A stretch of DNA of 64,000 bases. Source: Escherichia phage vB_EcoM_PHB13. The stretch lies in the sequence record MK573636; one strand, 5' to 3'. Under the pieces are notes generated by a model, which searched no databases, had not been told where the DNA came from, and saw nothing but the letters and a program-made list of their open reading frames with translations. Of this stretch, positions 5,746-58,734 are shown in pieces (positions within the stretch are counted from its first letter, which is position 1; every line of letters starts with the position of its first letter). The position numbers were made by a program, and so were the translations under genes.

Positions 5746-5871
5746 CTAATGTTCCTCCTGTGTTATAATGATATTTATCAACAAGTATCGCTGTTTATTT
5801 TCGTCTGCATTTTAGCAATAGCAAAGAGGATTGTCAAGTGTGTAACAAACATAAACATAGAGGATAATATT

Positions 5872-6693
5872 ATGAGCGTATTTGAAATAATCACCGAAGA
5901 CGAAAAGCCGTCTCCCCAAAAACGAAAGTCTAAACAGTGGGTCGAATTGGGTGTAGAATTTGCGAAGGCAAAAGCCAAAGGCATGACAGCTAAAGCATTT
6001 GCAGATTCTAAGGGAATAGCCTATGCGACTTTCACTAAAAGTATGTCTCGTTATGCAAGCGAAATTAAAACAGCAATAGAAGTTGAAAAACTAAAAGGGA
6101 AAGGTGCAAAGGGTCTCAATAAGCAGCAACGCGCAATGATGATGATTAATGATTTTCGTGCGTCTATGCGTGCTGTATCAAAGAGTCGTCCTAAAGAAAA
6201 ATCACAAGAGTGGTTTACTAAAACAATAAAATCGGGAATAAAGGGACACCAGATTGTAAAACCGCAAGTAGGGCGAATCTATACCTTTATGTATGATGCG
6301 AAGTATAAAGACACTTTGCCATATTGGGATGTTTTCCCGCTGATCATTTGTCTGGGTGATTCTAAGACAAAGGCGGGTAATACTGTAATGCTGGGTCTTA
6401 ACTTACACTATGTAACGCCTAAAGCCCGTCAGCAGTTTTTAGAGGCACTTTTAAAGCAATATGCATCTACTCCTACCTTGAGTAATAAAACACGCTTAAA
6501 AATCAAATGGAGCGATGTAAAAGGTATGCGTGGAAGTGATCACATGATCAAAGCATATCTACCGGGACACATTAAAACAAAACTTGTTGAGATTAGCCCG
6601 AAAGATTGGTCGAATATCATCTATATGCCAACATATCAGTTTATGTCAAAAGGCAAGAAATACGACGCAAGGAAAGTCTGGAAGGATGCATAA
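5872..6693 (+). CDS. 2: DNA end protector protein gp2
   Basis: 273 aa from the ATG at 5872 (SD AGAGGATAATATT-ATG); the ORF-track start at 5740 lies in the promoter region. Size and synteny (4-2-3-1) match T4 gp2. Confidence 0.8.
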   Translation: MSVFEIITEDEKPSPQKRKSKQWVELGVEFAKAKAKGMTAKAFADSKGIAYATFTKSMSRYASEIKTAIEVEKLKGKGAKGLNKQQRAMMMINDFRASMRAVSKSRPKEKSQEWFTKTIKSGIKGHQIVKPQVGRIYTFMYDAKYKDTLPYWDVFPLIICLGDSKTKAGNTVMLGLNLHYVTPKARQQFLEALLKQYASTPTLSNKTRLKIKWSDVKGMRGSDHMIKAYLPGHIKTKLVEISPKDWSNIIYMPTYQFMSKGKKYDARKVWKDA

Positions 6694-6699
6694 GATTAA

Positions 6700-6722
6700 G
6701 CCCGTCAATGACGGGCTTTTTA
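6700..6722 (+). terminator. intrinsic terminator after gene 2
   Basis: GCCCGTCAATGACGGGC hairpin followed by a T-tract. Confidence 0.6.
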
Positions 6723-6977
6723 TTATAGATCGATAGCATGAGCATAACCATGTAAGAAGTCTTTTAATTCTTCCTTATTGGTAACACGCTGTAAAATCTC
6801 TAATGCCTTGTCGCGATCACGTAATGCGCCTGAAAGGGATTTTATTTGGTCATCCCTTTCGGCAATCTGCTTAATCAGATCTGTATTGCATTTAGACAAA
6901 TAGAGAACTTCACCCCGCAATGTTGCTAATTCGTTATCCAAACGATCATAGAGTTTTAACAAAATGTCTTCTGTCAT
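6723..6977 (-). CDS. hypothetical coiled-coil protein
   Basis: 84 aa minus-strand ORF between genes 2 and 3; heptad-like charged sequence; no recognisable domain. Confidence 0.35.
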   Translation of the reverse strand: MTEDILLKLYDRLDNELATLRGEVLYLSKCNTDLIKQIAERDDQIKSLSGALRDRDKALEILQRVTNKEELKDFLHGYAHAIDL

Positions 6978-7166
6978 AAGAAGTCCTCGTATAGTACCCG
7001 TTTTATTTATTACTGTATAAAAATATAGTTATTGGTTAAAACATAACCAAAACGAAGAAAGATCTTTAGAATATAGAAAATTTGTTTCGGTTAAAAAGTA
7101 GTCAGTGCCTACGGCACGTCGCAAAGCGACAATTGTTAATAAATATTTTCATTTGAGGAATCGAAA

Positions 7167-7757: not shown

Positions 7758-7772
7758 CAAGAGGCTTATATT

Positions 7773-8429
7773 ATGAAATTGATTGCACTTTGTGGTAAAA
7801 AGCGCGTAGGAAAAGACACTGCCGCGTTAATCATTGATGGACACAGTTATCAACTGGCAGCACCGATCAAAGAAATCTTATGCGAATGCCAACCAGACTT
7901 AGGTCTGACTTATCTTGACTTTGACGGGTTGGGGCGTGACAGAGAAGCCGATCTAGGTATTGATACATACACAGCGCATAAGTGGTTTATTCAGTGTCTG
8001 CTTATGCTAGATTCGAAGTATGGCGGTAGTTCCTTTACTTGTGATAGTCTGGCTGAGATTTACAAGGTCGTTAATGAGATCGGCGAAAAACATAATAACG
8101 TCTGGTCTATTCGTCTTATGTTAACCACTCTCGGTACTGACATAATGGTTAACTTGATTAATCCGCTTTATTGGTGTAATCTCTTCGTGAATGAGTTTAT
8201 GAAGCGCAAAAGTGAAGAAGGGTATTTTGTAGTAGTTGATGTGCGTCAGCCTATTGAAATTGCTCTCATGCGTACTATGGGTGCTAAGGTGTTGCATATT
8301 CAGCGTGATACCGGTATTGTATCGACTCACTCCACCGAAAAAGGAATTTTGCCTATTGACGGTGAAACCATTATCATAAATAATGGTACATTAGAAGAAT
8401 TTGAAAGCGCGATTCTCGCGAACATTTAA
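7773..8429 (+). CDS. 1: deoxynucleoside monophosphate kinase gp1
   Basis: 218 aa; N-terminal P-loop (LCGKKRVGKDT) with the T4 gp1 pattern; synteny 3-1-57A. Confidence 0.8.
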   Translation: MKLIALCGKKRVGKDTAALIIDGHSYQLAAPIKEILCECQPDLGLTYLDFDGLGRDREADLGIDTYTAHKWFIQCLLMLDSKYGGSSFTCDSLAEIYKVVNEIGEKHNNVWSIRLMLTTLGTDIMVNLINPLYWCNLFVNEFMKRKSEEGYFVVVDVRQPIEIALMRTMGAKVLHIQRDTGIVSTHSTEKGILPIDGETIIINNGTLEEFESAILANI

Positions 8430-9232: not shown

Positions 9233-9261
9233 TTGACAACCATAAACGACTATAGCATAAT
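9233..9261 (+). promoter_or_regulatory. sigma70-type early promoter cassette (TTGACA-N17-CATAAT) with conserved leader
   Basis: TTGACA, 17-bp spacer, CATAAT, then leader ATCGAAACGAAACAC...AGGAGAATCAAA-ATG. Confidence 0.6.
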
Positions 9262-9298
9262 GCACATATCGAAACGAAACACACTTAGGAGAATCAAA

Positions 9299-9676
9299 AT
9301 GATGATGATGTTTAAAGATAAATTCGAATGTCACTACACCCGTAACTTTGACTTAGTATCCCGCTACTACATTCATAAAGAAACTGGTACGCAAGTAGTT
9401 CTTGAATCTCACAGCGAAGTAGGATTCGATTCAACAAAAGTAGCAATTAGTGCTCGCTTCTGGGATAACGGCAAATTTGCTTATATCGCTTGGAACGACG
9501 ACGAAAATGTAATTACAGTAGCTTTCGGTGATGACTACTACACTAAAAAGACTTTCGATAGTAAGCCATCAAATGAATACCTGAAAGCGTATGTGCAGCA
9601 CATGTTCCAACGTGTTCTGACCGGAATGGAAATCAATGTCATGAAAGACATTGTAGACGAAGTAAAATATTCTTAA
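9299..9676 (+). CDS. hypothetical early protein
   Basis: ATG 8 nt after the GGAG of the conserved leader; the ORF-track start at 9230 is a TTG inside the -35 element. Confidence 0.5.
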   Translation: MMMMFKDKFECHYTRNFDLVSRYYIHKETGTQVVLESHSEVGFDSTKVAISARFWDNGKFAYIAWNDDENVITVAFGDDYYTKKTFDSKPSNEYLKAYVQHMFQRVLTGMEINVMKDIVDEVKYS

Positions 9677-9711: not shown

Positions 9712-9742
9712 ACCACCACAAACAAACGAAAGGAGAATCAAA

Positions 9743-9901
9743 ATGAAATTTATCGGTAAAACTTTTATGTTCGTAGCTGGTACTCTGTTTACTGCAACTC
9801 TGTTAGCTGGTGGGTTGGATATCTTTACTACATTTGAAACTTTCGGGTATACTGTAGCATCGGGTGCTCTCTTCGGATTGGGTTTAGCGATTAGCAAATA
9901 A
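9743..9901 (+). CDS. small hydrophobic protein (52 aa)
   Basis: ORF below the ORF-track size cutoff, directly behind a promoter cassette with consensus SD; predicted single or double TM peptide. Confidence 0.4.
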   Translation: MKFIGKTFMFVAGTLFTATLLAGGLDIFTTFETFGYTVASGALFGLGLAISK

Positions 9902-11255: not shown

Positions 11256-11301
11256 ACACCCATCGAAACGAAACACACTTTCTTAAACGGAGAATCAAAT
11301 T

Positions 11302-11487
11302 ATGGCACGTCGCATCACTAAAGCACTGAAAGCAGTAAGCAAAGAAAACGTAGTAGCTATTCTGGTAATCTGGGGTTATAACGAAGAATCCGCTAAACAG
11401 AAAGTTGAAGCAGGGTTTGAACTGGCAGTAAAAGCAATGCCGAATGATGACTCTGTAGGGCTGGCAAACTATATTGCATATTTCTGA
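11302..11487 (+). CDS. hypothetical early protein
   Basis: 61 aa behind a promoter cassette. Confidence 0.45.
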   Translation: MARRITKALKAVSKENVVAILVIWGYNEESAKQKVEAGFELAVKAMPNDDSVGLANYIAYF

Positions 11488-11524: not shown

Positions 11525-11553
11525 ACAACCATCAACGAAACGGGAGAATCAAA

Positions 11554-11781
11554 ATGATTAACTTTAAAGACGCAGCAAAAGAAATTATCGACTTTGAGCG
11601 TGAACTGTTTGAGATGGAACCGCAGATGGGTAAAATGGAACTGGCTAACCAGATCTGGGCTACTAGACTGAATCCGGCTGATCGCTTAGAGATCATGAAC
11701 ATTGTAGGCGCAAGCGACATGAAAGGTGGTGCTATGGCTAAACTCCGCAAATGCACCGCATACATTGCTGATCAACTGTAA
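11554..11781 (+). CDS. hypothetical early protein
   Basis: 75 aa behind a promoter cassette. Confidence 0.45.
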   Translation: MINFKDAAKEIIDFERELFEMEPQMGKMELANQIWATRLNPADRLEIMNIVGASDMKGGAMAKLRKCTAYIADQL

Positions 11782-12217: not shown

Positions 12218-12259
12218 ACACCCATCGAAACGAAACACGAACTACTAAGGAGTATCAAA

Positions 12260-12586
12260 ATGAAACCAGTATCTGTTAAAGTTATCTTCTCTGAATCTTC
12301 TGTATTCGCTAACGCAAACGAAGTATTCCACTTCGAAGACTTCGAGCGTAAAGCACAGGACGCGGCAGCAAAAGCCTATGAAAGCGAATATGACAAAACT
12401 CAAATCGAGGTTACTTTCGAAAACGGCACTACTTACGCTTGCCGCCTTGACCTGGGTGATCGTCTGTCTGGCTTCCGTCACCATGTAGAGAAGACAATCG
12501 CTTTCTCTAAAACCGAAAAAGGAAAACACTACTTTTCTGTTTTCGGTACTGAAAATCTGGATTTCTTGAAAACTGTTTCTTTCTAA
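12260..12586 (+). CDS. hypothetical early protein
   Basis: 108 aa behind a promoter cassette. Confidence 0.45.
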   Translation: MKPVSVKVIFSESSVFANANEVFHFEDFERKAQDAAAKAYESEYDKTQIEVTFENGTTYACRLDLGDRLSGFRHHVEKTIAFSKTEKGKHYFSVFGTENLDFLKTVSF

Positions 12587-13173: not shown

Positions 13174-13194
13174 ATTTAATGTGAGGATTATATT

Positions 13195-13515
13195 ATGAGT
13201 AAACTGTTTGAAACTCCGCGCGAAATTCTGATCGATAAACTGAAAGAACGTGGTTTTAAGATCAAAGATGCAACCAAATACAGCCGAATTGATGAAATTA
13301 AGTTGCATTCTCTTGATGAACTGGTAGAATATGTTGCGGCAGTTGCTGATCCGCAGTTTGATGTGATTGTAGGTGACGTTGAATATCTCGATAATGTATA
13401 TTCATTCTTCACTTATGGTAAAATTGTGTCGGTGAAAATTTCATTCTGTGAAAATGTGGAGGTAGTTGCTAGTGAACCAGAAGAACCAACTGACAACGGT
13501 CCTACGGCAGCGTAA
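13195..13515 (+). CDS. hypothetical protein
   Basis: 106 aa behind a GAGGATTATATT-ATG type initiation region. Confidence 0.45.
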   Translation: MSKLFETPREILIDKLKERGFKIKDATKYSRIDEIKLHSLDELVEYVAAVADPQFDVIVGDVEYLDNVYSFFTYGKIVSVKISFCENVEVVASEPEEPTDNGPTAA

Positions 13516-17563: not shown

Positions 17564-17591
17564 ACCCCCATCGAAACAAAGGAGTATTAAA

Positions 17592-17927
17592 ATGAGTGTT
17601 AAAGAAGTATTTGTTTATACTGACTATGAAGGGTGTGCCTATCTCACTGCTGGAAAACTTTACCGTTGTGAGATTATTCATGGTACGTTAGGTCGAATTA
17701 TGTGCGATCCTATTACAAAATTGTGGAAAAATAATCCTAGTGAGCGAGAAACTCTTATTAACCTAGATCCAGACGGTTGTTCACATTTGGACTATAGAAA
17801 ATGGCATATAGTTACACATGATGCTTATGGTATTCATCTTGCTACTAAAGAATTAACTATTGACAAGTTCAAGTTTAAAGAAATCCCGTTTGTATACTGG
17901 CTTCGCAATTTGTTTAAGAAAGGATAA
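17592..17927 (+). CDS. small paralogous protein C
   Basis: 111 aa, third member of the family (KLYRCE...DPDGCSHLDYRKW). Confidence 0.45.
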   Translation: MSVKEVFVYTDYEGCAYLTAGKLYRCEIIHGTLGRIMCDPITKLWKNNPSERETLINLDPDGCSHLDYRKWHIVTHDAYGIHLATKELTIDKFKFKEIPFVYWLRNLFKKG

Positions 17928-17931
17928 TAAA

Positions 17932-18354
17932 ATGGAAACAATTAACGTACATGTTCGCCGTAGTAAGCTGCGTAGATTCTTCGAAACCGAAATGCGCAAA
18001 ACCAATGCGCAGATCAAAGAAAAGTGCTTGAATGATGGTTACGGTGAGTATATTTTCATTCGCTTTAGTCCGCATATGATCGACCGTCTAACCGATCGTC
18101 ATATCGATGAACATAAGACAATGGAACTATTCAATAAGGTAGAAACTCGTTTGCCGGAGATCTTCGACTTCCTGAGAATGGAAGACCGACCTAATCGATT
18201 AGAAATTACTGACGGTAACATGTGGATCGGAATGACAGTAGATCTAATCGAAGAGGGTAAACCGTATCACGGTCTATGCTGCCGAATGATTATAGAGAAT
18301 CCAAAACGACTTGCGGGTAAAATGTCGGCTGTTGTTTTGAGGGTAGACCAATAA
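17932..18354 (+). CDS. hypothetical protein; possible RegB-like endoribonuclease by position and size
   Basis: 141 aa from the ATG at 17932 (METINVHVRRSKLRRFFETEMRK...RLEITDGNMW...). Located between the e-equivalent region and tk, where T4 carries regB (153 aa). Assignment is by synteny only. Confidence 0.3.
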   Translation: METINVHVRRSKLRRFFETEMRKTNAQIKEKCLNDGYGEYIFIRFSPHMIDRLTDRHIDEHKTMELFNKVETRLPEIFDFLRMEDRPNRLEITDGNMWIGMTVDLIEEGKPYHGLCCRMIIENPKRLAGKMSAVVLRVDQ

Positions 18355-19397: not shown

Positions 19398-19412
19398 TTA
19401 GAGGTTTATATT

Positions 19413-19868
19413 ATGATTATTGATACTGTAAAGGGCGATCTCATCGCCCTGTTTAAACAAGGAAACGGTCATTTAATTCATGGTTGTAATTGTTTTCATA
19501 CTATGGGCGCTGGTATTGCTGCAAAGATCGCGAAAGAGTTCCCACAAGCGTTAGAGATTGACAAGCAAACTTCTCGCGGTAAGGTAGAAAAGCTGGGTGG
19601 GTTTAGTGTCTGGACGCATCAAGTTAATGGTTATAATTGGTGCGGGGTGAATCTCTATACCCAATTCCGACCGGGTCCAAATGCTGAATATGGTGCTATC
19701 CTGAAAGGATTTGAGACTATCAATGATGTTTTTGAAGGTGCTATACAGCCTTTCTATATTCCTAAAATCGGTTGCGGTATCGGTGGCCTTGAGTGGGAAT
19801 GTGTAGAAGAGATCATTAATATTGCTACTCCAGACATTAACATTGTGGTGGTTGAATATGACAAATAA
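19413..19868 (+). CDS. macro-domain protein (putative ADP-ribose binding / ADP-ribosylhydrolase)
   Basis: 151 aa; Gly-rich motifs (HGCNCFHTMGAGIAAKIA and IPKIGCGIGGL) in macrodomain-like arrangement. Confidence 0.5.
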   Translation: MIIDTVKGDLIALFKQGNGHLIHGCNCFHTMGAGIAAKIAKEFPQALEIDKQTSRGKVEKLGGFSVWTHQVNGYNWCGVNLYTQFRPGPNAEYGAILKGFETINDVFEGAIQPFYIPKIGCGIGGLEWECVEEIINIATPDINIVVVEYDK

Positions 19869-21217: not shown

Positions 21218-21520
21218 ATGTCATTTATTCGTAAAACTCTAACAGCGGCAATATGCTTGACTGCGGTCGGAAGTGTCAGTGCTGATCAATATGATCCAAC
21301 TGGTGACTTTACTGATTATTTCGACGGCGCAATGATAGTATATGTAAACAAAATATCTCCTTCCATTGAAACCAGCCAGAAATTTCATGCCCATATTATG
21401 AAGATGTATGCTCGTAGTAAATGTATGGATTCTAGGCAGTGTTTTATTATGGGGGGATATGCCGCACAACAATTTGTTCTGTTGCATAATATGGAGAATC
21501 GAGAACATGAAATTCAGTGA
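21218..21520 (+). CDS. rI: lysis inhibition regulator RI-like periplasmic protein (antiholin)
   Basis: 100 aa with N-terminal signal-anchor sequence and a two-Cys C-terminal domain; directly after tk, as rI is in T4 (97 aa). Confidence 0.5.
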   Translation: MSFIRKTLTAAICLTAVGSVSADQYDPTGDFTDYFDGAMIVYVNKISPSIETSQKFHAHIMKMYARSKCMDSRQCFIMGGYAAQQFVLLHNMENREHEIQ

Positions 21521-22203: not shown

Positions 22204-22233
22204 GCACACATCGACAACAAAGGAGAATCAAAA

Positions 22234-22449
22234 ATGATTAATCCAGTAGCGGCAGCACTTGCTTCCGAAGAAACTTTGAAGTATATGGTAGAACATGCAG
22301 CAAAGAAAGGAGAAATTGTTACTGCCGATGAGATCGTAGAAACCATGCTCCGCGATCCGAATGGTAACACTGCAAAGTTTTTCGGTGATCATCTTAAACT
22401 GGCTTACAAAACAATTATGGAGACCGTGAAAAAATGCAAAATGATGTGA
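22234..22449 (+). CDS. hypothetical early protein
   Basis: 71 aa behind a promoter cassette. Confidence 0.45.
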   Translation: MINPVAAALASEETLKYMVEHAAKKGEIVTADEIVETMLRDPNGNTAKFFGDHLKLAYKTIMETVKKCKMM

Positions 22450-23447: not shown

Positions 23448-23488
23448 ACACCCATCGAAACGAGATACACTTTCTAGGAGAATCAAAA

Positions 23489-23710
23489 ATGGCAACTGTT
23501 AAAATTATCAAATCTTCCGCTGGTTTCGGTTTCATGCGTGGAGCTAAGTACCCGATGATTATTGAAAACGTTGCCATCGAAGATGGTATGGCTAAAGTGA
23601 CCAGCCGTCAATTGTTCGAAGCTGGTGTTAAAACTGCTGAATCATGGGCGCTTCGTTACCCAAACAAAACTTGGTCTTTCTTCCTGAATGGAGAAGCAGA
23701 GGTCATCTAA
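23489..23710 (+). CDS. small protein, KIEII/GVKLPII family member
   Basis: 73 aa; KIIKSSAGFGFMRGAKYPMIIE resembles the N-termini of ORFs at 26061, 26277 and 26534. Confidence 0.45.
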   Translation: MATVKIIKSSAGFGFMRGAKYPMIIENVAIEDGMAKVTSRQLFEAGVKTAESWALRYPNKTWSFFLNGEAEVI

Positions 23711-24616: not shown

Positions 24617-24645
24617 GCACACATACCAACTAAGGAGAATCAAAG

Positions 24646-24936
24646 ATGACCGCTGAACAATTAATCAAACATATCCGCAACATTATTTGGGATCTGTCTG
24701 GTGATAAAGAGGAACAGGCTGAACGCATTTTAGCTAAACTCTATGAGCGCCGTGACCGTGGAGTATCCGTAAAGAAAGTAGAAACTTTCAAAGAGTTATC
24801 TTTCATCGAAGCTAAAAAGGATGGATTAATTTATCAGTTGACAGATGGTTACTGGTGCTATGATAATACTCGCTATGACACCGCGACTGATGCATTAAAA
24901 GCATGTAATGACCATCTTCGCAAAACTACAATTTGA
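24646..24936 (+). CDS. hypothetical early protein
   Basis: 96 aa behind a promoter cassette. Confidence 0.45.
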   Translation: MTAEQLIKHIRNIIWDLSGDKEEQAERILAKLYERRDRGVSVKKVETFKELSFIEAKKDGLIYQLTDGYWCYDNTRYDTATDALKACNDHLRKTTI

Positions 24937-24946
24937 GGATTATATT

Positions 24947-25144
24947 ATGAAGGTTAAAACATTGGCTGATATGGATGAGATCGAGACTCAAGTACATGCG
25001 GCGCTAGTCGGTTATGAGTTTGGTCGATTCCTTAATAAGTTCCATGATTATAAATGCTTAAATTGTGGTGCTCATAACGTAATTGGTGCTTGCTGTATTA
25101 ATCCTGTTATAGTACCATATAAAAGAAATGAAACAGAAGAGTGA
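24947..25144 (+). CDS. Cys-rich small protein
   Basis: About 65 aa from GAGGATTATATT-ATG; CxxC and CC motifs. Confidence 0.4.
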   Translation: MKVKTLADMDEIETQVHAALVGYEFGRFLNKFHDYKCLNCGAHNVIGACCINPVIVPYKRNETEE

Positions 25145-25819: not shown

Positions 25820-26064
25820 TCACCGGATATATTCCATATTCAACGACAAAACACATTATCGGATTTGAAGACATAGAAAAGTCTTGCTTTCCTCTCAAGG
25901 TTGAAGTAGACTTTATTACAGCGAACGGATGGGCTTACGTCACTGTTTCAGAAATGAAGCGAGTGGGGTGGGAAAACTGCATACACCTACCGCATCTTAT
26001 CCTAGATGTTCGCGCTGGTGAAATTGATATTGCTGGAAAGATCTATGGAGATAATGTAACATGA
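25816..26064 (+). CDS. hypothetical protein
   Basis: 82 aa; ATGA overlap. Confidence 0.4.
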   Translation: MITGYIPYSTTKHIIGFEDIEKSCFPLKVEVDFITANGWAYVTVSEMKRVGWENCIHLPHLILDVRAGEIDIAGKIYGDNVT

Positions 26065-26258
26065 AAATTGAAATTATTGATGACGGTGGATTTTCTTTCA
26101 TGAATGGCGTTAAACTTCCTATTATCGTGGAAGGTCGTCGGTATGGGCTTGATTATCTTGTAGAAACGCAGGAACTACAAAAAGCTGGAGTGCCGATTAA
26201 AGGTTATTTTCCTGAGTATGAATGGTGTTTTCGTGCCAATGAAGCATGGGTAGTGTAA
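26061..26258 (+). CDS. small protein, KIEII/GVKLPII family
   Basis: 65 aa (MKIEIIDDGGFSFMNGVKLPIIVEG...YEWCF). Confidence 0.45.
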   Translation: MKIEIIDDGGFSFMNGVKLPIIVEGRRYGLDYLVETQELQKAGVPIKGYFPEYEWCFRANEAWVV

Positions 26259-26276
26259 CTAATTGAGGATTATATT

Positions 26277-27138: not shown

Positions 27139-27180
27139 ACACACATCAAAACGAAACACACTTTCTTAAGGAGAATCAAA

Positions 27181-39259: not shown

Positions 39260-39271
39260 GGGGAATATATT

Positions 39272-40096
39272 ATGAAATGGGAAATTGGTAAAACTTACAC
39301 CTGGAAAGACGAAAACGCTAAAACTGAGTTTATTACTAACGGAGAAGGTGTTCTTTCTCCACTTAACAGCGATATTAGTGCAGCTATTGGTGACAAGCCA
39401 TTTACCATCATCGAGATCGAGGGTAACGGTTGGATTGATGCAATAGAGCTAGACGGTGTTTATCATACGGCGAAAACTGCTACAGGAAAAGACATTTGGA
39501 AGTCAACATATTTGTTTAGTCCATTTGATAGAAAATTCTTTCGTGAAGTTGAAGAAGTTCCCCAGAAATGGGAAGTTGGTAAAACTTATACTTGGAAAGA
39601 TATTAAGGCTATGACCGACTTCTGTCATTATGCCGAAAACGTATCTAACCTTAATTATGTTATTGCACGAGCAATAAATTATAGACCTTTTACTGTTAAA
39701 AATGTTCGTCCATGTGGGCAAATTGATGTAATTGAAATTGATGGTAAAGACCATACTCTAATGAGCGCAACCGAAGATAGAGACCATAAAGGAACTAGCT
39801 GGTTTATTGATTCTGATAGAAAATTCTTTCGTGAAGTAGAAGAATTGGAAGTTATAACCACTGATTCTAAGATCGTTGGACAGTTGAAACGTCTGTTTAG
39901 TAGTCGTTACGGCCTGACAATGGTTAAATTTGGCGAAGCAAATGAAGGTAAAACCTTTGAACGTTTCGATGATTTCATTTCGGCACTTGACAAGATGGAT
40001 GAAATCATGCAAGATCGCCAGAAGATTAAAGACCTTCAAGAAGACATTAAACGTCGTGAAGTTGAATTTTTGATTGGTAAAGAGCGAGGATGGTAA
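39272..40096 (+). CDS. WExGKTY-family protein (paralog 3, internally duplicated)
   Basis: 274 aa with two copies of the module (MKWEIGKTYTWKD... and ...QKWEVGKTYTWKD..., each ending DRKFFREVEE). Confidence 0.45.
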   Translation: MKWEIGKTYTWKDENAKTEFITNGEGVLSPLNSDISAAIGDKPFTIIEIEGNGWIDAIELDGVYHTAKTATGKDIWKSTYLFSPFDRKFFREVEEVPQKWEVGKTYTWKDIKAMTDFCHYAENVSNLNYVIARAINYRPFTVKNVRPCGQIDVIEIDGKDHTLMSATEDRDHKGTSWFIDSDRKFFREVEELEVITTDSKIVGQLKRLFSSRYGLTMVKFGEANEGKTFERFDDFISALDKMDEIMQDRQKIKDLQEDIKRREVEFLIGKERGW

Positions 40097-40997: not shown

Positions 40998-41018
40998 TTC
41001 TTGAGTGAGGAATATATT

Positions 41019-41306
41019 ATGTTAGTACACAATGCAATCGCACACATGGTTTATTCTCGATTTGGGCGCAGGGAAGAAATCAATATTACCGACGCAGATT
41101 TAGATCTGATGCAAGTAGAAGGTCAGACATATCTGAAAAATAACGGCGTGAATATCGGTAAAGCGCGTGTGCGTGAATTGTTGGTTGAATATATTCTCTC
41201 TGAATTTGGCATTAGTGCTTTCGGTGTGAAAGAGCTTGCACCTAAGCGCGAAATTTCTGATAAAATGATCAAGAAATGCCAGAAAGCACGACGTAAGGGT
41301 TTCTAA
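41019..41306 (+). CDS. hypothetical protein
   Basis: About 95 aa from GAGGAATATATT-ATG; stop overlaps the start of the NTPase gene. Confidence 0.45.
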   Translation: MLVHNAIAHMVYSRFGRREEINITDADLDLMQVEGQTYLKNNGVNIGKARVRELLVEYILSEFGISAFGVKELAPKREISDKMIKKCQKARRKGF

Positions 41307-43855: not shown

Positions 43856-43945
43856 TGGCTTTATAAGGGAGACTCCGAAAGGGGTTTCCCTTTTTATTTT
43901 TCTGTGATATAGTGAGAGCATCGAAAACGAAGAGAGGAAGAGACT

Positions 43946-44971
43946 ATGAAAATTTTGCTTTTAGGTGATCTGCATACTGGCATCGGTGGCGATGATCCGT
44001 GGGTGCATGAGTATATTTTAGACACGATCAAGAAAGCTGTTGATTATTCTAAAGAAAATGGTATTAAGATATGGATTCAAACAGGGGATTGGTTTGATTG
44101 TCGCAAGGCTATCACACATGAAACCATGAAATTTAACCGTACTAAGGTCATCCCATTACTGGAAGAGGCAGGAATCACCTGTTATATCACGGTCGGGAAT
44201 CATGATATGTTTAAACGCAATAAGATCCAGCCTAACGCGCCGCGTGAAGTGTTAAGCCAGTATGATTGCATTAAGGTTATTGATAAGCCAGAAACAGTTA
44301 CCTTTGATGGGGTATCATTCGACCTGTTCCCGTGGTTTTGTGATGACAATAAATCCGAGGTTTTAGAGTTTATTCAAAATTCATTCAGCGAATATTGTGT
44401 AGGCCATTGGGAATTGTCCGGCTACTATTTCTATAAAGGGTTAAAATCCGAAGGTTATAGCGCGGACTTCCTCAAGAAATACCGTGAAGTGTTTTCCGGT
44501 CACTTTCATACTATCAGTGATGGCGGTAACGTAACGTATATTGGCACACCATACACACTAACGGCTGGCGACGAAAATGATCCGCGTGGTTTTTGGGTAT
44601 TCGATACAGATACACACAAAAAGGAGTTTATCCAGAATGACAAAACTTATCATGTGCGTATCACTTACCCGTCAGATGATAAAATCGATGTAGAACGCTT
44701 TAAAGGGCTTAGTGTGCGCCTAATTGCAACGGTCGCTGATAATGGGTTAACTAAGTTAGAAAGCGCGTTAGAAGCCGTTGTGCATAAGCTAAAAGTTGTC
44801 CATAAGCTGGAGAGTAGCGCATCACAGGAAACAGGTGTTATTGAAGTTAAAAGCACTATTCAGATGGTCTATGAATATCTGGAAGAACAAAACCTAGAAC
44901 CGGAAGAACTTGCGGCGGTCAAGCGTATTTCTGATGAACTTTTAGCCGAAGTAAATAACGCAAAAAGTTAG
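43946..44971 (+). CDS. 47: recombination endonuclease subunit gp47 (Mre11-like)
   Basis: 341 aa; calcineurin-like phosphoesterase motifs (LGDLHTG, GDWFD, GNHD, GHFH); T4 gp47 is 339 aa. Confidence 0.85.
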   Translation: MKILLLGDLHTGIGGDDPWVHEYILDTIKKAVDYSKENGIKIWIQTGDWFDCRKAITHETMKFNRTKVIPLLEEAGITCYITVGNHDMFKRNKIQPNAPREVLSQYDCIKVIDKPETVTFDGVSFDLFPWFCDDNKSEVLEFIQNSFSEYCVGHWELSGYYFYKGLKSEGYSADFLKKYREVFSGHFHTISDGGNVTYIGTPYTLTAGDENDPRGFWVFDTDTHKKEFIQNDKTYHVRITYPSDDKIDVERFKGLSVRLIATVADNGLTKLESALEAVVHKLKVVHKLESSASQETGVIEVKSTIQMVYEYLEEQNLEPEELAAVKRISDELLAEVNNAKS

Positions 44972-45272: not shown

Positions 45273-45590
45273 ATGAAAACACTTGCACAAAAAGTAGTAG
45301 AATTTAATGCAGCTTTGCCTATGTTTGCTCGACGTAAGGGGATCTCCGTTGATGTATGGTATTCTAAAGAGCATGAAGAAGTTCGGATGATGGTCGAAAA
45401 GCGACTCACCGATACTACTGTTAAGTGTAAGATTCGCTCTATTCCTCGCGCGGAAATAGAATTTGATGAAAGCTATTACTTTACGCTGCGTCATGTGCTG
45501 AAACAAGCAGTGGATGAACTTTTAGAAGACCTGAAACAATATGAGATTGAACGAGGAACATATTATGAATACGACTATGGTCGCGGCTGA
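45273..45590 (+). CDS. hypothetical protein
   Basis: About 105 aa. Confidence 0.4.
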   Translation: MKTLAQKVVEFNAALPMFARRKGISVDVWYSKEHEEVRMMVEKRLTDTTVKCKIRSIPRAEIEFDESYYFTLRHVLKQAVDELLEDLKQYEIERGTYYEYDYGRG

Positions 45591-51405: not shown

Positions 51406-51768
51406 ATGATTGAAATTAATTTGATTAGTCCTGAAAACTTCCTTAAAATTAAGGAGACTTTAACCCGCTGCGGCATTGCCAACAATCGTGACAAGACCCT
51501 GTATCAGTCTTGTCATATTCTCCAGAAGAAAGGGCGCTATTACATCGTTCATTTCAAGGAGTTGTTGAAATTAGATGGTCGTAGTGTTAAAATGACGTGG
51601 GAAGATGAATTACGCCGTAATAACATTGCAAAACTTCTTGCGCAGTGGAATCTGTGTACCCTGATTGATAGTGATTTTGAAACTACCGAAGTTAATAATT
51701 TCCGTGTACTGTCTTTCAAACAGAAAGAAGAGTGGACGCTGATCGAGAAATATCAGATCGGACGCTAA
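51406..51768 (+). CDS. regA: translational repressor RegA
   Basis: 120 aa; MIEINL...HILQKKGRYYIVHFKELL; T4 RegA is 122 aa at the same position. Confidence 0.8.
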   Translation: MIEINLISPENFLKIKETLTRCGIANNRDKTLYQSCHILQKKGRYYIVHFKELLKLDGRSVKMTWEDELRRNNIAKLLAQWNLCTLIDSDFETTEVNNFRVLSFKQKEEWTLIEKYQIGR

Positions 51769-51818: not shown

Positions 51819-51850
51819 GAGTGTCTTTCGTAAGTGAAGGAGTTTATATT

Positions 51851-54529
51851 ATGTATTTTCTGTCATGTGAGCGAGTAGGTGATAAGATCTACGAGCGTTA
51901 TATTGATGATGCTGGACAAGAACAAGAGCGTTACGTTGAATATACGCCAACTTTATTTCATCATGCCGCGCCTGGTATGGTTACGAATTATAAAGATATC
52001 TATGGCAAGCCTTGCATTGCTAAAAAATTCCCCTCTATGAACGAGGCCAACAAATGGCGTAAAAAGATGGGGGAGATGGGGCAAGAGGCACTAGGGATGG
52101 ATGATTTTATCATCTCCTATCTGTCTGATACGTATAAAGGCGAGATTCGATATGACCGAAATAAAATCCGTGTAGCATGGGTTGATATCGAGGTCACTGC
52201 CCCAGAATTTCCTAAACCAGAAGAAGCGAAATATCCTATCGATGCAATTACGCATTATGATTCCGTACATGATCGTTTCTTTGTATTTGATTTGAAAGGA
52301 AAAAACGGTGAATCTTGGGAAGCAAGCAAGTCTATTCTTCGCCCAGATATTGTAGAACGTGTTGTTTATAACGTCTATGACACAGAAGATGAATTGCTGT
52401 TAGAATACATCCGATTCTTTGAGGAAAACCGACCCGTTGGTTTCACTGGCTGGAACACAGAAACATTCGATATTCCATATATCATTAAACGTATCAGTAA
52501 TAAGTTCGGAAGTAGAACCGCTAACCGTCTAAGCCCGTGCGGTAAGATTAAATCCCGAATCTCACAGGATGATTTTGGCAACGAGCGTGAAGCATTTACG
52601 ATCATGGGGATCGAAAGCCTTGATTATATTGACCTGTACAAGAAATTTAGCTTTACGACTCAACCAACATATGCATTAGATTATGTTGCTGAATACGAGA
52701 CAGGAATCGGTAAGGTTGATTATGATGGTCCGTTAAAGAAATTGCGTGATGACAACCATCAACTTTACATCGATTATAACATCGGCGACGTTGATCGTGT
52801 GCTGGCGATTGATAAAAAGCGTGGATTTATCGATCTGGTGTATAGCCTATGTTTCTATGCAAAGATTAAATTTAACCATGTTTATAACCCGATGAAAGTA
52901 TGGGATGCTATTATCTTCGGATCTCTGAAAGCTGAGGGTAAAGTAGTACCGGAAAATAAGATACAACCTAAGCAGACGTATCCAGGCGCATTTGTAAAAG
53001 AACCTGTGCCAAATGCTTACCGTTGGATGATGAGCTTTGACTTAACAAGTTTGTACCCATCTATTATTCGACAGGTTAATATTTCGCCTGAAACAATCGC
53101 TGGATCTTTTGATGCTGCACCGATGCACGAGTATATCAATAAAACTGCACCACGTCCTAGTGATGAGTATTCTTGCTCGCCTAACGGATGGATGTATCGA
53201 AAAGATATTCATGGTATCGTACCGATTGAGATTAAAAAGGTATTCGATCAGCGTAAGCAGTACAAAAACATGATGTTGGCATGTGATCGCAATGCTGAAC
53301 TATGTAAAGCGATTCTACACGATGAAAATCATGTTTATGGGGGAACCATTAGCTATAGCGTTGAAGTGCGTCACGACTTCGATGAAGCGTTTAAATCGAT
53401 GCTTTCTGAATTAAGTAAAGACGCCTTAGAGAAATTGCTGGAAGAATGTAAAGACGAGTCGATCTTGTGCAATACAAACCAGCTTTCTCGAAAAGTTTTG
53501 ATCAACTCCCTTTATGGTGCGTTGGGGAATCCTAAATTCCGTTTTTATGATCTCCGTAACGCTAGTGCGATCACACTGTTCGGTCAGCTTGCAATTCAGT
53601 GGATTGAGCGTAAGATTAACGAATACTTAAACGAGCTTTGCGGAACAACCGATTTTGCATATGTTCGTTATTGTGATACTGACTCCGTTTATGTGCTGGT
53701 TAACAATGTTGTTGATAAGGTTGGCGGGGAAGACCGTTTCGACGATACCGAAAAACTTGTTGACTTCCTTGATAATTTCGGTAAACATCGAATGGAACCT
53801 ATTATCGACAAGGGATATCGCGAGTTATGCGAGTACATGAACAACTATGAGCACTTGATGTTTATGGACCGCGAGGCAATTGCTGGTCCTCCGTTGAAAT
53901 CTGCGGGTATCGGTGGATTCTGGACTGGTAAAAAGCGTTATGCTCTTAATGTTTGGGATATGGAAGGAACGCGCTTTGCTGAACCTAAGCTAAAAATCAT
54001 GGGCTTGGAAACGCAACGTAGCTCCACCCCGAAAGCATGTCAGAAATCACTGAAAGAATGTATTCGCCGTATGTTGCAGGAAGGTGAAGAGTCATTGCAG
54101 GAATACTACGGTATTTTTGAGCAAGAATTTAGAAAACTTGACTATCTTGATGTTGCTGCGGTATCATCTGCAAACAACCTACAGAAATACAGCGATTCAA
54201 ACGGGTATCCGATTAAGGGTTGTCCGTATGCGGTTAAGAGTGTATTGTGTTATAATCGTAATGCTCGAAAATTCGGACTAGATCCGATTCGTGAAGGCGA
54301 GAAGGTTATGATTGTACCGCTGAAAGATCGAAATCCGTTTGGAGAAATCTGTTTTGGTTGGTTGTCCGGTACTCGTATTCCTCCAGAGATTGAAAGCGAG
54401 GTGTTAAAGTGGTTAGACTGGTCTTTGTTGTTTAATAAGACTTTCGTCAAACCACTGGAGAACATTACAACGGCTGCAAAGCTGCAATATGAAAAAGTGG
54501 CATCTCTTACAGACCTGTTTGACATTTAA
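51851..54529 (+). CDS. 43: DNA polymerase gp43 (family B)
   Basis: 892 aa from the ATG at 51851; exonuclease motifs (WVDIEV, YNIGDVD), polymerase motifs (SFDLTSLYPSIIRQ, KILINSLYGALG, YCDTDSVY); strong resemblance to T4 gp43 throughout. Confidence 0.92.
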   Translation: MYFLSCERVGDKIYERYIDDAGQEQERYVEYTPTLFHHAAPGMVTNYKDIYGKPCIAKKFPSMNEANKWRKKMGEMGQEALGMDDFIISYLSDTYKGEIRYDRNKIRVAWVDIEVTAPEFPKPEEAKYPIDAITHYDSVHDRFFVFDLKGKNGESWEASKSILRPDIVERVVYNVYDTEDELLLEYIRFFEENRPVGFTGWNTETFDIPYIIKRISNKFGSRTANRLSPCGKIKSRISQDDFGNEREAFTIMGIESLDYIDLYKKFSFTTQPTYALDYVAEYETGIGKVDYDGPLKKLRDDNHQLYIDYNIGDVDRVLAIDKKRGFIDLVYSLCFYAKIKFNHVYNPMKVWDAIIFGSLKAEGKVVPENKIQPKQTYPGAFVKEPVPNAYRWMMSFDLTSLYPSIIRQVNISPETIAGSFDAAPMHEYINKTAPRPSDEYSCSPNGWMYRKDIHGIVPIEIKKVFDQRKQYKNMMLACDRNAELCKAILHDENHVYGGTISYSVEVRHDFDEAFKSMLSELSKDALEKLLEECKDESILCNTNQLSRKVLINSLYGALGNPKFRFYDLRNASAITLFGQLAIQWIERKINEYLNELCGTTDFAYVRYCDTDSVYVLVNNVVDKVGGEDRFDDTEKLVDFLDNFGKHRMEPIIDKGYRELCEYMNNYEHLMFMDREAIAGPPLKSAGIGGFWTGKKRYALNVWDMEGTRFAEPKLKIMGLETQRSSTPKACQKSLKECIRRMLQEGEESLQEYYGIFEQEFRKLDYLDVAAVSSANNLQKYSDSNGYPIKGCPYAVKSVLCYNRNARKFGLDPIREGEKVMIVPLKDRNPFGEICFGWLSGTRIPPEIESEVLKWLDWSLLFNKTFVKPLENITTAAKLQYEKVASLTDLFDI

Positions 54530-54590
54530 GATAAAGTGTGTATAATGGCGGGTGTTGGGTGACGATACCCGCCAATGTGAGAAATATATT

Positions 54591-54779
54591 ATGAGAGACA
54601 TTGAAAAGATTAAACGTGAACGTGAGGAAGGCATAGAGCATTTCAAGAAAGTTCACGGAAATCACAGTAACGAAGTATTTGTGACGATCAATGTTGATGC
54701 GATGAAAAAGTTAATTCAAGAGCACTACAAAGATCGAATAACAATGAAGCAATTAAAGTATTACGGATTAACTGAATAG
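54591..54779 (+). CDS. small hypothetical protein
   Basis: About 62 aa from GAGAAATATATT-ATG; the only ORF between genes 43 and uvsX. Confidence 0.4.
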   Translation: MRDIEKIKREREEGIEHFKKVHGNHSNEVFVTINVDAMKKLIQEHYKDRITMKQLKYYGLTE

Positions 54780-55895: not shown

Positions 55896-55916
55896 ATATC
55901 TAGAGAGGATTATATT

Positions 55917-56234
55917 ATGGATAAGAAACCAACAAGTTTAGAAGAAGCACACAGCTTGATTCAAGAAGCAATGAAGACAGTTATCCAGGAACTGATAATT
56001 GTTGATGAAGAGGGAGAACATCATATTGTCTATATTCATAATGTTGAATACGATCCAGACACTAAAGGTATTGTGGTCGACTACTCCACGCCGTCAGATC
56101 GTGATGTGGTATATCCACACGTCATTAAGGCGTTAACCGCGCAGATCAAAGAAGCAGAAGAAAAGTTGAAAAAAGAAACTTTCTGGTATAAACTCAAGAC
56201 CTTTGTTATGCGTGTAGTTGGGGGCTATGTATGA
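55917..56234 (+). CDS. 40: gp40-like head vertex assembly chaperone (by position)
   Basis: 105 aa between uvsX and the gene 41 helicase, as gene 40 is in T4; C-terminal hydrophobic tail. Confidence 0.4.
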   Translation: MDKKPTSLEEAHSLIQEAMKTVIQELIIVDEEGEHHIVYIHNVEYDPDTKGIVVDYSTPSDRDVVYPHVIKALTAQIKEAEEKLKKETFWYKLKTFVMRVVGGYV

Positions 56235-57643
56235 TTAAAACTATCTTTTCACAGTTGATTTACAATGGCGCATTCTTTACGAATGTATGGCCTCACCTTA
56301 AAGCGGACTACTTCACCGAAGACGAAGAAAAACTGATTTATAAGCTGATTAAAAAGCACGTAGACGAATATTCCAATATTCCTACGCCAACAGCATTACA
56401 GATTGCTTTAGACAAGGAGAGAGGCAATCAGACAACATATGAAGGGGCTAAAACTCTTCTTGATTCGCTTGAGAATACACCGGAAGACCTTGATTGGTTA
56501 ATGAAGGAAACCGAAAAATTTATTCGTGACCGTGCCATGTATAATGCAATGTCACGGGCGCTAGAGATTCAGGCGAACGCACAACTACCAAAAGAGAAAC
56601 AGAATAAGAAATTGCCGAGTGAGGGTGCTATTCCTGAGATCATGCAGGAAGCACTATCCATTACGTTTGATTCTGATGTAGGTCATGACTGGTTTAATGA
56701 CTTTGAAAAACGATTCTTGCTATATCAGACTAAGGCGAATAAGATCCCGTTTAAGCTGCCGATGTTGAATAAAATCACGAAAGGAGGTGCGGAAAGAAAA
56801 ACGCTAAATGTGTTGCTTGCTGGTGTAAACGTTGGTAAATCGCTTGGCTTGTGTTCTCTTGCTGCGGATTATATGGAATGTGGTTATGATGTATTGTATA
56901 TATCAATGGAGATGGCAGAGCATGTCGTAGCAAAACGTATCGACGCAAACTTGCTTGACATTACATTAGATGAATTGGATAATGGTAATGTTTCTTTTGC
57001 GGAATATTCCGCACGCATGAAGCGTGTTAAGAATAAGAAGATCGGAGATCGTCCGGTTGGAAAATTGATGATCAAGCAGTATCCGACTGGTGGCGCAAAC
57101 TCCAATCACTTTGAGGCGTTAATGAATGAATTGCGACTCAAGAAACAGTTTAAACCTGATGTTGTGATTGTTGACTATCTGGGGATTTGCGCATCGTCTC
57201 GCTTGCGTGTATACTCTGAAAATAGTTACACACTAGTTAAGGCGATTGCGGAAGAACTGCGAGGATTTTTTGTTAAGTGGGATGTTGTTGGTTGGACTGC
57301 GGCACAGACTACCCGCGCGGGTTGGGATGCTTCCGACCTTAACATGAGTGATACCGCTGAATCAGCAGGTCTTCCGGCTACTGCCGACTTTATGTTGGGT
57401 GTTATCGAAACCGAAGACCTGGCTAAAATGGGCGTCCAACTCATGAAGCAGATCAAGTCTCGTTACGGTGATAAGAACTATTATTCACGGTTTAACGTTG
57501 GTGTGAAGAAAGGCAATCAGCGTTGGTATGAAGTACCAAACCAGATCGCAGATCAGGAGAATACACAAGTTAAACCACAAAGCGCACAGCAAGCCGAGAA
57601 ACGCGAAAAACTCGACGAGCTAGCAAATACCATGACTTTCTAA
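56231..57643 (+). CDS. 41: replicative DNA helicase gp41 (DnaB-like)
   Basis: 470 aa; Walker A AGVNVGKS, Walker B VVIVDYLG, DnaB-family layout; T4 gp41 is 475 aa. Confidence 0.85.
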   Translation: MIKTIFSQLIYNGAFFTNVWPHLKADYFTEDEEKLIYKLIKKHVDEYSNIPTPTALQIALDKERGNQTTYEGAKTLLDSLENTPEDLDWLMKETEKFIRDRAMYNAMSRALEIQANAQLPKEKQNKKLPSEGAIPEIMQEALSITFDSDVGHDWFNDFEKRFLLYQTKANKIPFKLPMLNKITKGGAERKTLNVLLAGVNVGKSLGLCSLAADYMECGYDVLYISMEMAEHVVAKRIDANLLDITLDELDNGNVSFAEYSARMKRVKNKKIGDRPVGKLMIKQYPTGGANSNHFEALMNELRLKKQFKPDVVIVDYLGICASSRLRVYSENSYTLVKAIAEELRGFFVKWDVVGWTAAQTTRAGWDASDLNMSDTAESAGLPATADFMLGVIETEDLAKMGVQLMKQIKSRYGDKNYYSRFNVGVKKGNQRWYEVPNQIADQENTQVKPQSAQQAEKREKLDELANTMTF

Positions 57644-57693
57644 TAAAATGCGCCCTACGGGGCGCTGGTGAATGATTTGATAGGAGATATAAC

Positions 57694-58329
57694 ATGATCG
57701 CTAATGCTTTACCGCCAAAATGGATCGTAAGTCGCTTTTATACTCTCAAGGAAGGTAACGCACCTGATGGTCGTCCGATCCGAGATCTGTTTCTGGAGAT
57801 GACTACCGCCGAAGCACAATTTTATAATGATCTGACAGACGATAAGCCGTTTCTTGTAAATTCTGTGGATCTTGATGGTAATGTTACGTCAATTATCGCA
57901 CATGGTGGGGAAGTGAAAAATATTACTTCTCTGCGTGAACACGGTTGGGAAATTGCTTGTGTATTTCCTGCGGATGTACGCGGATTCTTTGATGAGGTAT
58001 CTGATATTAAAGTAAATGCACTAGAACCATATGACGAGATCCCACCACTGAAAGAAGAAAAAGAGTTGACACCGGAAGATGTAGATAGTACACTACACCC
58101 AGACCTATTTAAGAAGATTAGCGGTTTATGGACTGTTACCCTGCATCCAACCGCATTAGGTCTAGAATTGGGTATGCCAACTTATTCTGATATTGATAAT
58201 TGGACTAAGCATATTGATAAAGATGTTGAAAAACAGCGAAATAATGCTAAAATGCAACTTAAAGAGAAACGAAAAGATCTTGAACGACAACTGAAAGAAA
58301 CCAAACATTTGCTTTCTACGTTCGCTTGA
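57694..58329 (+). CDS. hypothetical protein
   Basis: 211 aa. Confidence 0.4.
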   Translation: MIANALPPKWIVSRFYTLKEGNAPDGRPIRDLFLEMTTAEAQFYNDLTDDKPFLVNSVDLDGNVTSIIAHGGEVKNITSLREHGWEIACVFPADVRGFFDEVSDIKVNALEPYDEIPPLKEEKELTPEDVDSTLHPDLFKKISGLWTVTLHPTALGLELGMPTYSDIDNWTKHIDKDVEKQRNNAKMQLKEKRKDLERQLKETKHLLSTFA

Positions 58330-58359
58330 TCTATAATGAAACTCTAAGGAGACTATATT

Positions 58360-58734
58360 ATGAAAAATATGATTACGCCGGAAGATGTAGCATTTAAAAC
58401 CGCAAATAACGGAGACATTCTTATTTTTATCGACGGTAAACATGCTGGTATGGTTGAACCGGAAGGACGCTGGGGAGTCGCCGAACTTTATGATGTGGCT
58501 GGTGTAGATCCGAAAACTGCAATTGTTTTTCTGGCGGATAAAGATCAAATGCGTCGAAAAATTGCTGCGCTCTATAATGAAGCATTGTATTTCTACGAAC
58601 CGTTTCATCGTATTAAAACGATCTCCCGCGTGACTCGAAAAGATGTTAATGCTTGTGTTATCAAGATTGTAGAGAATCAGGATAAACTGACGAAAGACCA
58701 GATTGTTGACTTACTGAAAGAGATTATTCTATGA
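58360..58734 (+). CDS. hypothetical protein
   Basis: 124 aa from AGGAGACTATATT-ATG. Confidence 0.4.
   Translation: MKNMITPEDVAFKTANNGDILIFIDGKHAGMVEPEGRWGVAELYDVAGVDPKTAIVFLADKDQMRRKIAALYNEALYFYEPFHRIKTISRVTRKDVNACVIKIVENQDKLTKDQIVDLLKEIIL

Follow-up and report, generated by a model that had tools for sequence, protein, structure and literature searches.

The T4-type phages related to RB49 carry two features that have been described separately. The first is a mobile early promoter/stem-loop cassette (PeSL), known from RB49 and phi1, that ends in the Shine-Dalgarno sequence and start codon of the downstream gene and mediates the shuffling of ORFans (PMC2839356). PeSLs recombine together, and the crossovers have been mapped between the Shine-Dalgarno sequence/ATG and the -10 element (PMC2839356). 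The second is RegB, an endoribonuclease whose site, as defined with host ribosomal protein S1, comprises 11 single-stranded nucleotides (nt), GGAGRAYARAA; the T4 consensus is GGAGAAUAAAA, and conservation is highest for the A residues at positions 6, 8, and 11 (Durand et al. 2006, PMC1702504). GGAU is cut only if a strict A-rich part follows, and 28 of 30 intergenic GGAU sites of T4 are resistant (PMC1702504). The RB49 regB gene, one of three diverged regB genes, is already annotated and experimentally studied (review PMC3014915, citing Piesiniene 2004); it has a GGAU Shine-Dalgarno sequence, and the Shine-Dalgarno sequences tested were cleaved in vivo (PMC3014915).

Here we consider a 64,000-nt stretch of Escherichia phage vB_EcoM_PHB13 (sequence record MK573636; the whole stretch is referred to as the window). 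By megablast it belongs to the genus Krischvirus, with 95-98% identity over its length to RB49 (95-97%), phi1, JSE, GEC-3S, and about 55 further coliphages, and it represents the early (pre-replicative) arm of a T4-type coliphage like RB49. About a quarter of the early-strand genes begin behind one of two recurrent, ready-made modules for translation initiation (class A and class B), which no late structural gene carries. The published PeSL has class A as its 3' end. The RB49 regB gene, the PeSL cassettes, and the RegB/S1 consensus are all in print, and what we describe mostly extends this known biology rather than adding a new kind, so its novelty is modest. An explicit link between the PeSL leader and a RegB/S1 site was not found in the searchable literature, outside which Desplats 2002 and Piesiniene 2004 lie, and neither was a second stereotyped module that replaces the first on the same cassette.

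Two start modules on the early strand

To avoid circularity, the start codons of the RB49 RefSeq record were used as reference and mapped onto the window by tblastn, which gave 128 genes, five with starts set by hand. Class A was defined as GGAGAATCAAA, 0-3 nt, and ATG, and class B as GAGGATTATATT-ATG, with genes assigned at two or fewer mismatches. In this set 14 genes are class A and 16 are class B, together 30 of 128 (23%); the other 98 have varied GAGG, GGAG, GGTG, or other Shine-Dalgarno sites. A first-pass annotation of this DNA had stated that the early genes use two initiation regions almost exclusively, which is wrong as the classes cover only this fraction, but its expectation that both motifs are enriched holds firmly. 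The class A motif GGAGAATCAAAATG occurs 11 times in the window at two or fewer mismatches (0.95 expected) and the class B 12-mer GAGGATTATATTATG 26 times at three or fewer (3.2 expected), and a count made without any annotation returns class A and class B as the most repeated 12-mers of the window. Exact copies of GAGGATTATATTATG number eight (13183, 24935, 26265, 27835, 32073, 32697, 33930, and 55905). A position-independent model made from the 12-nt stretch in front of each of the 128 start codons predicts 0.03, so the stereotypy goes past a common Shine-Dalgarno preference. The nine class B starts listed by the first-pass annotation are all start codons of mapped genes (gp2, p109, p077, p073, p068, p059, frd.2, p057, and gp40); the one at 5872 carries a single mismatch (GAGGATAATATT).

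The remainder of RB49 was also surveyed, the segment at 120-164 kb by DNA motif search and direct sequence inspection. In the late structural block at 70-111 kb (genes 7-24 and 25-54), no class A or class B start region was found. Outside the part shared with the window, class A occurs only before ORFans in hyperplastic regions, at 114-123, 131, and 158-160 kb, and class B occurs before p200, p203, p207, cd, p233, frd, p239, p260, p262, and rIIA, all on the early-transcribed strand. When RB49 and the window are taken together, either module is carried by 57 of about 224 early-strand genes and by none of about 50 late genes (Fisher p = 3e-6). The description of class B as early holds for the strand but not strictly for function, since genes 2 and 40 are also class B. 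Many late genes (window 1-4270; RB49 70-111 kb, L004) favor a GGTGA-type Shine-Dalgarno sequence, which has no GGA and so cannot serve as a RegB substrate.

One explanation for such uniformity is that the modules are the two best Shine-Dalgarno/spacer combinations for Escherichia coli, convergently selected for high expression, with any RegB sensitivity incidental. Module A (AAGGAG plus 7 nt) resembles the T7 gene 10 site. Both modules have canonical Shine-Dalgarno cores and spacing in A/U-rich, weakly structured surroundings, and neither is present in late genes, among which GGTGA-type sites were frequent in those inspected. A translation optimum does not, however, normally demand one exact 12-mer, as the eight identical class B copies would require, and it leaves unexplained the pairing of module A with promoter-proximal ORFans and of module B with conserved genes of greater length (median product length of 91 amino acids for class A and 147 for class B). 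We consider translational optimization alone possible but rather doubtful.

Class A and the RegB/S1 site

The class A start regions of the window are as follows.

9288-9301, + strand: class A, p125; GGAGAATCAAA-ATG with the ATG at 9299; sigma70-like promoter at 9233-9261
9732-9745, + strand: class A, p124; promoter at 9683 with hairpin
11289-11304, + strand: class A, p117; GGAGAATCAAATT-ATG; promoter at 11227
11543-11556, + strand: class A, p116; promoter at 11496 with GGGGAGG...CTCCCC hairpin
12249-12262, + strand: class A variant, p113; GGAGTATCAAA-ATG; promoter at 12189
17581-17594, + strand: class A variant, p095, the open reading frame (ORF) immediately upstream of regB; GGAGTATTAAA-ATG; promoter at 17535 with hairpin
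21493-21509, + strand: weak class A-like, rI.-1; GGAGAATCGAGAAC-ATG; no promoter upstream
22222-22236, + strand: class A, p084; promoter at 22175, terminator-like hairpin at 22136
23477-23491, + strand: class A, p080; promoter at 23419
24634-24648, + strand: class A, p078; GGAGAATCAAAG-ATG; 12/12 promoter match at 24589
27170-27183, + strand: class A, p070; promoter at 27110 with GGGGAT...ATCCCC hairpin
31786-31800, + strand: class A variant, p060; GGAGAATCAACA-ATG; invariant in five Krischvirus genomes
37595-37609, + strand: class A, p053; GGAGAATCAAAT-ATG
61452-61466, + strand: class A variant, srd; GGAGAATCAATT-ATG

Thirteen of these 14 sites lie 25-45 nt downstream of near-consensus TTGACA-N16-18-TAnAAT promoters, each accompanied by a hairpin, either a G/C one that lies between the hexamers or spans them, or a terminator-like one immediately upstream. 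The same 13 show the full set of PeSL hallmarks, namely hexamers, stem-loop, Shine-Dalgarno sequence, ATG, and a position before ORFans. The likeness to the PeSL of Arbiol et al. 2010 (PMC2839356) and Comeau et al. 2014 (PMC4122927) extends to the A/T-rich upstream region, the TTGACA and TAnAAT hexamers, the GGGG...CCCC-type hairpin, the leader with its Shine-Dalgarno sequence and ATG, and the place before ORFans in hyperplastic regions. In those papers, however, the Shine-Dalgarno sequence is merely an alignment landmark, and neither RegB nor GGAG is mentioned. The 22 nt that precede GGAG in class A are 49% A, 27% C, 17% U, and 7% G, compared with 23% G on the strand overall.

The cassette origin of class A raises the possibility that concerted evolution alone has made the motifs uniform, through recombining PeSLs or microhomology, with no regulation at the RNA level beyond a functional ribosome-binding site. 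PeSLs do recombine, with crossovers located between the -10 element and the Shine-Dalgarno sequence/ATG (PMC2839356). Class A is always found together with the cassette, and it stands before ORFans in hyperplastic regions. Against this explanation, the stretch of leader from the -10 element to GGAG is variable in both length and sequence and the 11-mer is constant, a contrast that is partly by construction because the sites were selected by motif. The copies of class B have only about 13 nt in common, with near-zero information content upstream and mostly no promoter or cassette, and one cassette subtype bears either module (see below). Concerted evolution as the sole cause seems unlikely to us.

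The alternative that we favor starts from the phage's own RegB.

17932-18354, + strand: regB endoribonuclease gene (140 amino acids), identified by Pfam REGB_T4, PDB 2HX6, and RB49 regB
17922-17934, + strand: regB start region, GGATAATAAAATG, in which GGAU is followed by a perfect match to the A-rich 3' part of the RegB/S1 consensus; putative autoregulatory site

The first-pass annotation had pointed to a possible regB-like ORF here, and the assignment is borne out. The protein matches Pfam PF10715 (REGB_T4) with E = 7.1e-48 (162.9 bits against a cut-off of 27), aligns to the T4 RegB structure 2HX6 with E = 7e-26, and is 97% identical to the annotated RB49 regB product (RB49p094); the gene adjoins vs.1 and vs. 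Identity to T4 RegB is about 39% over the aligned N-terminal 84 residues. The catalytic histidines of T4 RegB are His48 and His68 (PMC3014915). In the protein considered here and in that of RB49, His48 and Arg52 are conserved, but His68 is not kept: an Asn occupies its position, with His57 and His61 nearby. The GGAU Shine-Dalgarno sequence of RB49 regB is nevertheless reported to be cut by RegB in vivo (PMC3014915), which implies an active enzyme and agrees with the T4 rule for the 3' part.

To compare the start regions with RegB substrates, every GGAG and GGAU on the early strand was scored for the 3' part RAYARAA; the GGAG sites number 119. The class A leader GGAGAAUCAAA agrees with GGAGRAYARAA at 10 of 11 positions. 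Its GGAG is invariant in all 14 class A sites, and its 3' part, AAUCAAA, matches at six of seven positions, the mismatch being the C at position 8. Nine GGAG sites score 6/7, and all nine are class A start regions; of the roughly 78 GGAG sites that lie outside start regions on the early strand, none reaches this score. The regB start region is the sole 7/7 match on the early strand (GGAUAAUAAAA at 17922), and except for it, class A gives the best GGAG or GGAU matches at early-strand start regions. One GGAU, GGATGACAACA at 37210, also scores 6/7 and has no annotated start in the 20 nt downstream of it. The GGAU of class B is followed by UAUAUUA (GGAUUAUAUUA), which matches the 3' consensus at four of seven positions and lacks the strict A-rich part, and we predict from the T4 rules that class B is RegB-resistant.

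The arrangement resembles that of T4 (PMC1702504, PMC3014915) in its orthologous RegB, with GGAU and a perfect A-rich consensus at the enzyme's own start, and in the location of class A in the Shine-Dalgarno sequences of promoter-proximal early genes with single-strand-prone leaders. It differs in that the T4 sites form a degenerate family around GGAGAAUAAAA, whereas the class A site is one near-invariant 11-mer with C at position 8, present in about 30 copies per genome.

We propose that module A unites strong translation in the immediate-early phase with a RegB/S1 cleavage site of its own and that module B is a RegB-insensitive start, and we hold this proposal to be about as probable as its negation. 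Module A (AAGGAGAAUCAAA, 0-3 nt, AUG), which opens small ORFan operons and lies behind a near-consensus promoter in a leader rich in A/C and poor in G, would be transcribed by the host polymerase right after infection, and its strong Shine-Dalgarno sequence would yield a burst of translation. RegB, aided by S1 reading the A-rich 7 nt 3' of GGAG, would then cut the GGAG between G and A. Such a cut would ruin the ribosome-binding site, and because module A is the first feature of the primary transcript, it would also take off the 5' triphosphate end, leaving the message exposed to RNase E/G. In T4, RegB-type cuts feed a decay route of polynucleotide kinase (PNK) and RNase G/E (PMC3014915), and pseT is annotated in RB49. 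The regB message would limit itself likewise via its own GGAUAAUAAAA site. Module B would most likely be an efficient start for genes that need translation beyond the early shut-off.

Several points weigh against this proposal. The C at position 8 of class A is a mismatch at one of the three most conserved A positions; T4 sites and sites from in vitro selection (SELEX) strongly prefer A8, and the RegB-resistant T4 gene 1 RNA has C8 and C10 together with A7 (PMC1702504). Because the class A copies share descent as cassettes, their fit to the consensus is in effect one observation and not nine, and since class A was already known as the Shine-Dalgarno end of the PeSL, its uniformity can stem from cassette recombination instead of selection by RegB. 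The class B spacer is equally invariant without resembling a RegB site, so spacer invariance is no evidence of RegB selection. Predicted start-region accessibility is only marginally higher in both classes than in other genes (p = 0.06 and 0.04; mean unpaired probability 0.53 for class A and 0.47 for other genes), and because the differences are marginal, they are not counted as evidence. This RegB has Asn at the position of T4 His68, and its specificity may differ from that of T4 RegB. The searchable literature yielded neither cleavage nor expression data for the leaders described here, nor a Krischvirus transcriptome paper, and searches with the motif strings gave only unrelated primer matches. 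The first-pass view of class A as a coordinated RegB-sensitive regulon is thus supported in part, by the presence of regB and the 10/11 consensus fit, but is weakened by C8 and by the limited share of genes that the classes cover. The underlying observation is real and has been partly confirmed.

If the proposal is true, some 30 ORFan operons per Krischvirus genome would constitute a clean, predictable RegB regulon, and the genes captured by the mobile PeSL would receive a built-in shut-off signal along with a promoter and terminator. PeSL shuffling and RegB would then become linked. Class A would also offer a natural test set for RegB/S1 specificity, with one C8 site in many copies. The current view of T4-type gene regulation is not overturned.

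Class B: context and candidate readers

Class B occupies the following positions in the window.

5860-5874, + strand: class B, gene 2; GAGGATAATATT-ATG
7761-7775, + strand: class B, gene 1 (dNMP kinase); GAGGCTTATATT-ATG
13183-13197, + strand: class B, exact, p109; internal position, no promoter
19401-19415, + strand: class B, tk.4; GAGGTTTATATT-ATG
24935-24949, + strand: class B, exact, p077
26265-26279, + strand: class B, exact, p073
27835-27849, + strand: class B, exact, p068; behind a 12/12 sigma70-like promoter at 27784
28962-28976, + strand: class B, p064; GAGGATTATATA-ATG
32073-32087, + strand: class B, exact, p059 (goF-like); invariant in five genomes
32697-32711, + strand: class B, exact, frd.2; behind a PeSL-type promoter and hairpin at 32649
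33930-33944, + strand: class B, exact, p057; behind a PeSL-type promoter and hairpin at 33884
39260-39274, + strand: class B-like, p049; GGGGAATATATT-ATG
41007-41021, + strand: class B, 55.2; GAGGAATATATT-ATG
45553-45567, + strand: class B-like, p036; GAGGAACATATT-ATG
54579-54593, + strand: class B-like, p025; GAGAAATATATT-ATG
55905-55919, + strand: class B, exact, gene 40; no class B at its orthologues in three other genera

As RNA, module B is GAGGAUUAUAUU-AUG, a 4-nt Shine-Dalgarno sequence followed by an 8-nt spacer of pure A/U. It precedes longer, more conserved genes (1, tk.4, 55.2, frd.2, 40, and 2, and in RB49 also cd, frd, and rIIA). Three copies (p068, frd.2, and p057) lie behind PeSL-type promoters, and most others are operon-internal without a promoter. 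The PeSL subtype with hairpin GGGAGTAGTAAnATACTCCC over the -10 element ends in class A at p060 and in class B at frd.2, and a closely related GGGAGT...ACTCCC hairpin precedes class B at p057. One subtype thus carries either module, indicating that modules A and B are interchangeable ends of one cassette type; this was not found in the PeSL papers (PMC2839356, PMC4122927). Class B is a compact, much-reused ribosome-binding site that may be of practical use and may mark genes exempt from early shut-off.

Other readings of the class B sequence were considered. Its TATATT is unlikely to be a -10 element, since transcripts would begin inside the ORF, and it does not match the late promoter TATAAATA. 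Extended pairing to the 16S rRNA 3' end amounts by inspection to GAGG at most. The start region of gene 43 (DNA polymerase; 51839-51853, GGAGTTTATATT-ATG), downstream of a consensus promoter at 51790, is a hybrid of a GGAG Shine-Dalgarno sequence and a class B-like spacer; in T4, gp43 synthesis is stimulated by RegB processing (PMC3014915).

A regulatory protein that could read class B is encoded in the window.

51406-51768, + strand: regA translational repressor gene (PDB 1REG, E = 4e-48); candidate reader of class B

RegA binds A/U-rich sequence that is unstructured and lies at the AUG or just 5' of it, and class B (GAGGAUUAUAUUAUG in RNA) could be its operator. The RNA-binding residues named for T4 RegA (K14, T18, R21, W81, and F106) are conserved, and UUAUG is common to class B and to the T4 operators of rIIB (AAAAUUAUG) and gene 44 (AAAUUAUG) and the SELEX sequence UUGUUAUG (PMC3014915). 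Class B precedes gene 1 in the window and, as exact GAGGATTATATT-ATG, rIIA (L003 34748-34765) and cd (L005 7502-7516) in RB49, and the start regions of rpbA (GGAGAUUAAUAUU-AUG) and gene 44 (GGUGAUUAU-AUG) resemble it. Like the T4 operators, it is A/U-rich and probably unstructured, abuts the AUG, and ends in UUAUG as in rIIB and gene 44. Unlike them, it is invariant rather than degenerate and is without the 5' poly(A) tract noted for T4 sites. It is also missing from most orthologues of the classic targets; regA, 45, 62, rIIB, and dexA do not start behind class B in the window or RB49 (no class B module was found at RB49 rIIB or dexA). Given the notorious degeneracy of RegA sites, little weight attaches to a partial match, and we regard a RegA operator as improbable.

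It is also conceivable that GAUUA in class B serves as an RNase E entry site, RAUUW being the consensus that Ehretsmann reportedly described in 1992; the messages would then be linked to decay by host RNase E instead of to RegB. G-AUU-A directly follows the class B Shine-Dalgarno sequence, and RNase E plays a major part in the decay of T4 mRNA (PMC3014915). RAUUW is, however, a short, degenerate pentamer expected often in any A/U-rich spacer, and we see nothing specific in favor of reading the class B spacer in this way. We think this explanation very improbable.

A more ambitious version of our proposal would treat the modules as dedicated, sequence-coded operators for two global post-transcriptional regulators of the phage, A for RegB/S1 cleavage and B for RegA or another RNA-binding protein, in a binary transient/sustained program. 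This program could replace the middle mode of MotA/AsiA, for which RB49 has no annotation. As the same cassette can take either module, shuffling would then set the class of a new ORF, transient or sustained, by the module behind which it landed. We give this version little credence.

Conservation, genomic setting, and minor observations

Between the window and RB49, positions -12 to -1 differ at 2 of 156 nt in class A, 2 of 180 nt in class B, and 37 of 1020 nt in other genes, so the modules diverge more slowly than other start regions (4/336 against 37/1020 nt, p = 0.026); their flanks differ by about 3%. Four modules at 31.7-34.0 kb are invariant in five Krischvirus genomes, with local identity down to 91%, and the whole intergenic regions there are likewise well conserved in the five. 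We considered whether class B might be an ancient feature of gene 40 and rejected this, since gene 40 starts behind unrelated sequence in Tequatrovirus ECML-134, Karamvirus PG7, and Klebsiella phage Lemur. This makes class B a lineage-specific "house style" of Krischvirus rather than an inherited orthologous feature. A scan of IMG/VR with the exact 16-mer TGAGGATTATATTATG gave mostly single, chance-like matches in unrelated contigs and a few Krischvirus-like contigs, and was uninformative.

In reverse complement, the window corresponds to the RB49 genome between about 70 kb and about 6 kb. Its minus strand at 1-4205 holds the late baseplate genes 6, 5, and 53. A plus-strand array begins at about 4.2 kb with genes 4, 2, 3, 1, and 57A/B and an ORFan-rich hyperplastic region, continues through regB, vs, tk, rI, 38, dam, nrdC, 49, nrdD/G, 55, 47, 46, 45, 44, and 62, and goes on with regA, 43, uvsX, 40, 41, 61, 56, modB, srd, and dda. 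Rfam and tRNA scans gave no matches.

A few differences from RB49 were seen along this array. Free-standing HNH-AP2 endonuclease genes are polymorphic between the two phages: an ORF with HNH_3 and AP2 domains lies between dam and nrdC (30198-30953, + strand) and is not at that place in RB49. An HNH ORF between the leader and gene 47 in RB49 (L003 9938-10492) is not present in the window (43856-43948), so that gene 47 here follows immediately on the leader found in RB49 before the HNH gene. A 340-amino acid ORF without a Pfam match (4723-5745, - strand) lies between genes 4 and 2, again not at this place in RB49, and the adjacent gp4 is only 87% identical to its RB49 counterpart, compared with 97-100% for most neighboring genes. 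At 26061-26872, p074, p073, and p072 resemble tandem paralogues in which VKLPIIV...DYEWCF segments recur. The p073 product is only 59% identical to its RB49 counterpart, and the patchy divergence suggests exchange among the three copies. The boundaries of this divergence do not coincide with class B, as the patch begins inside the ORF and resembles tandem-paralogue exchange.

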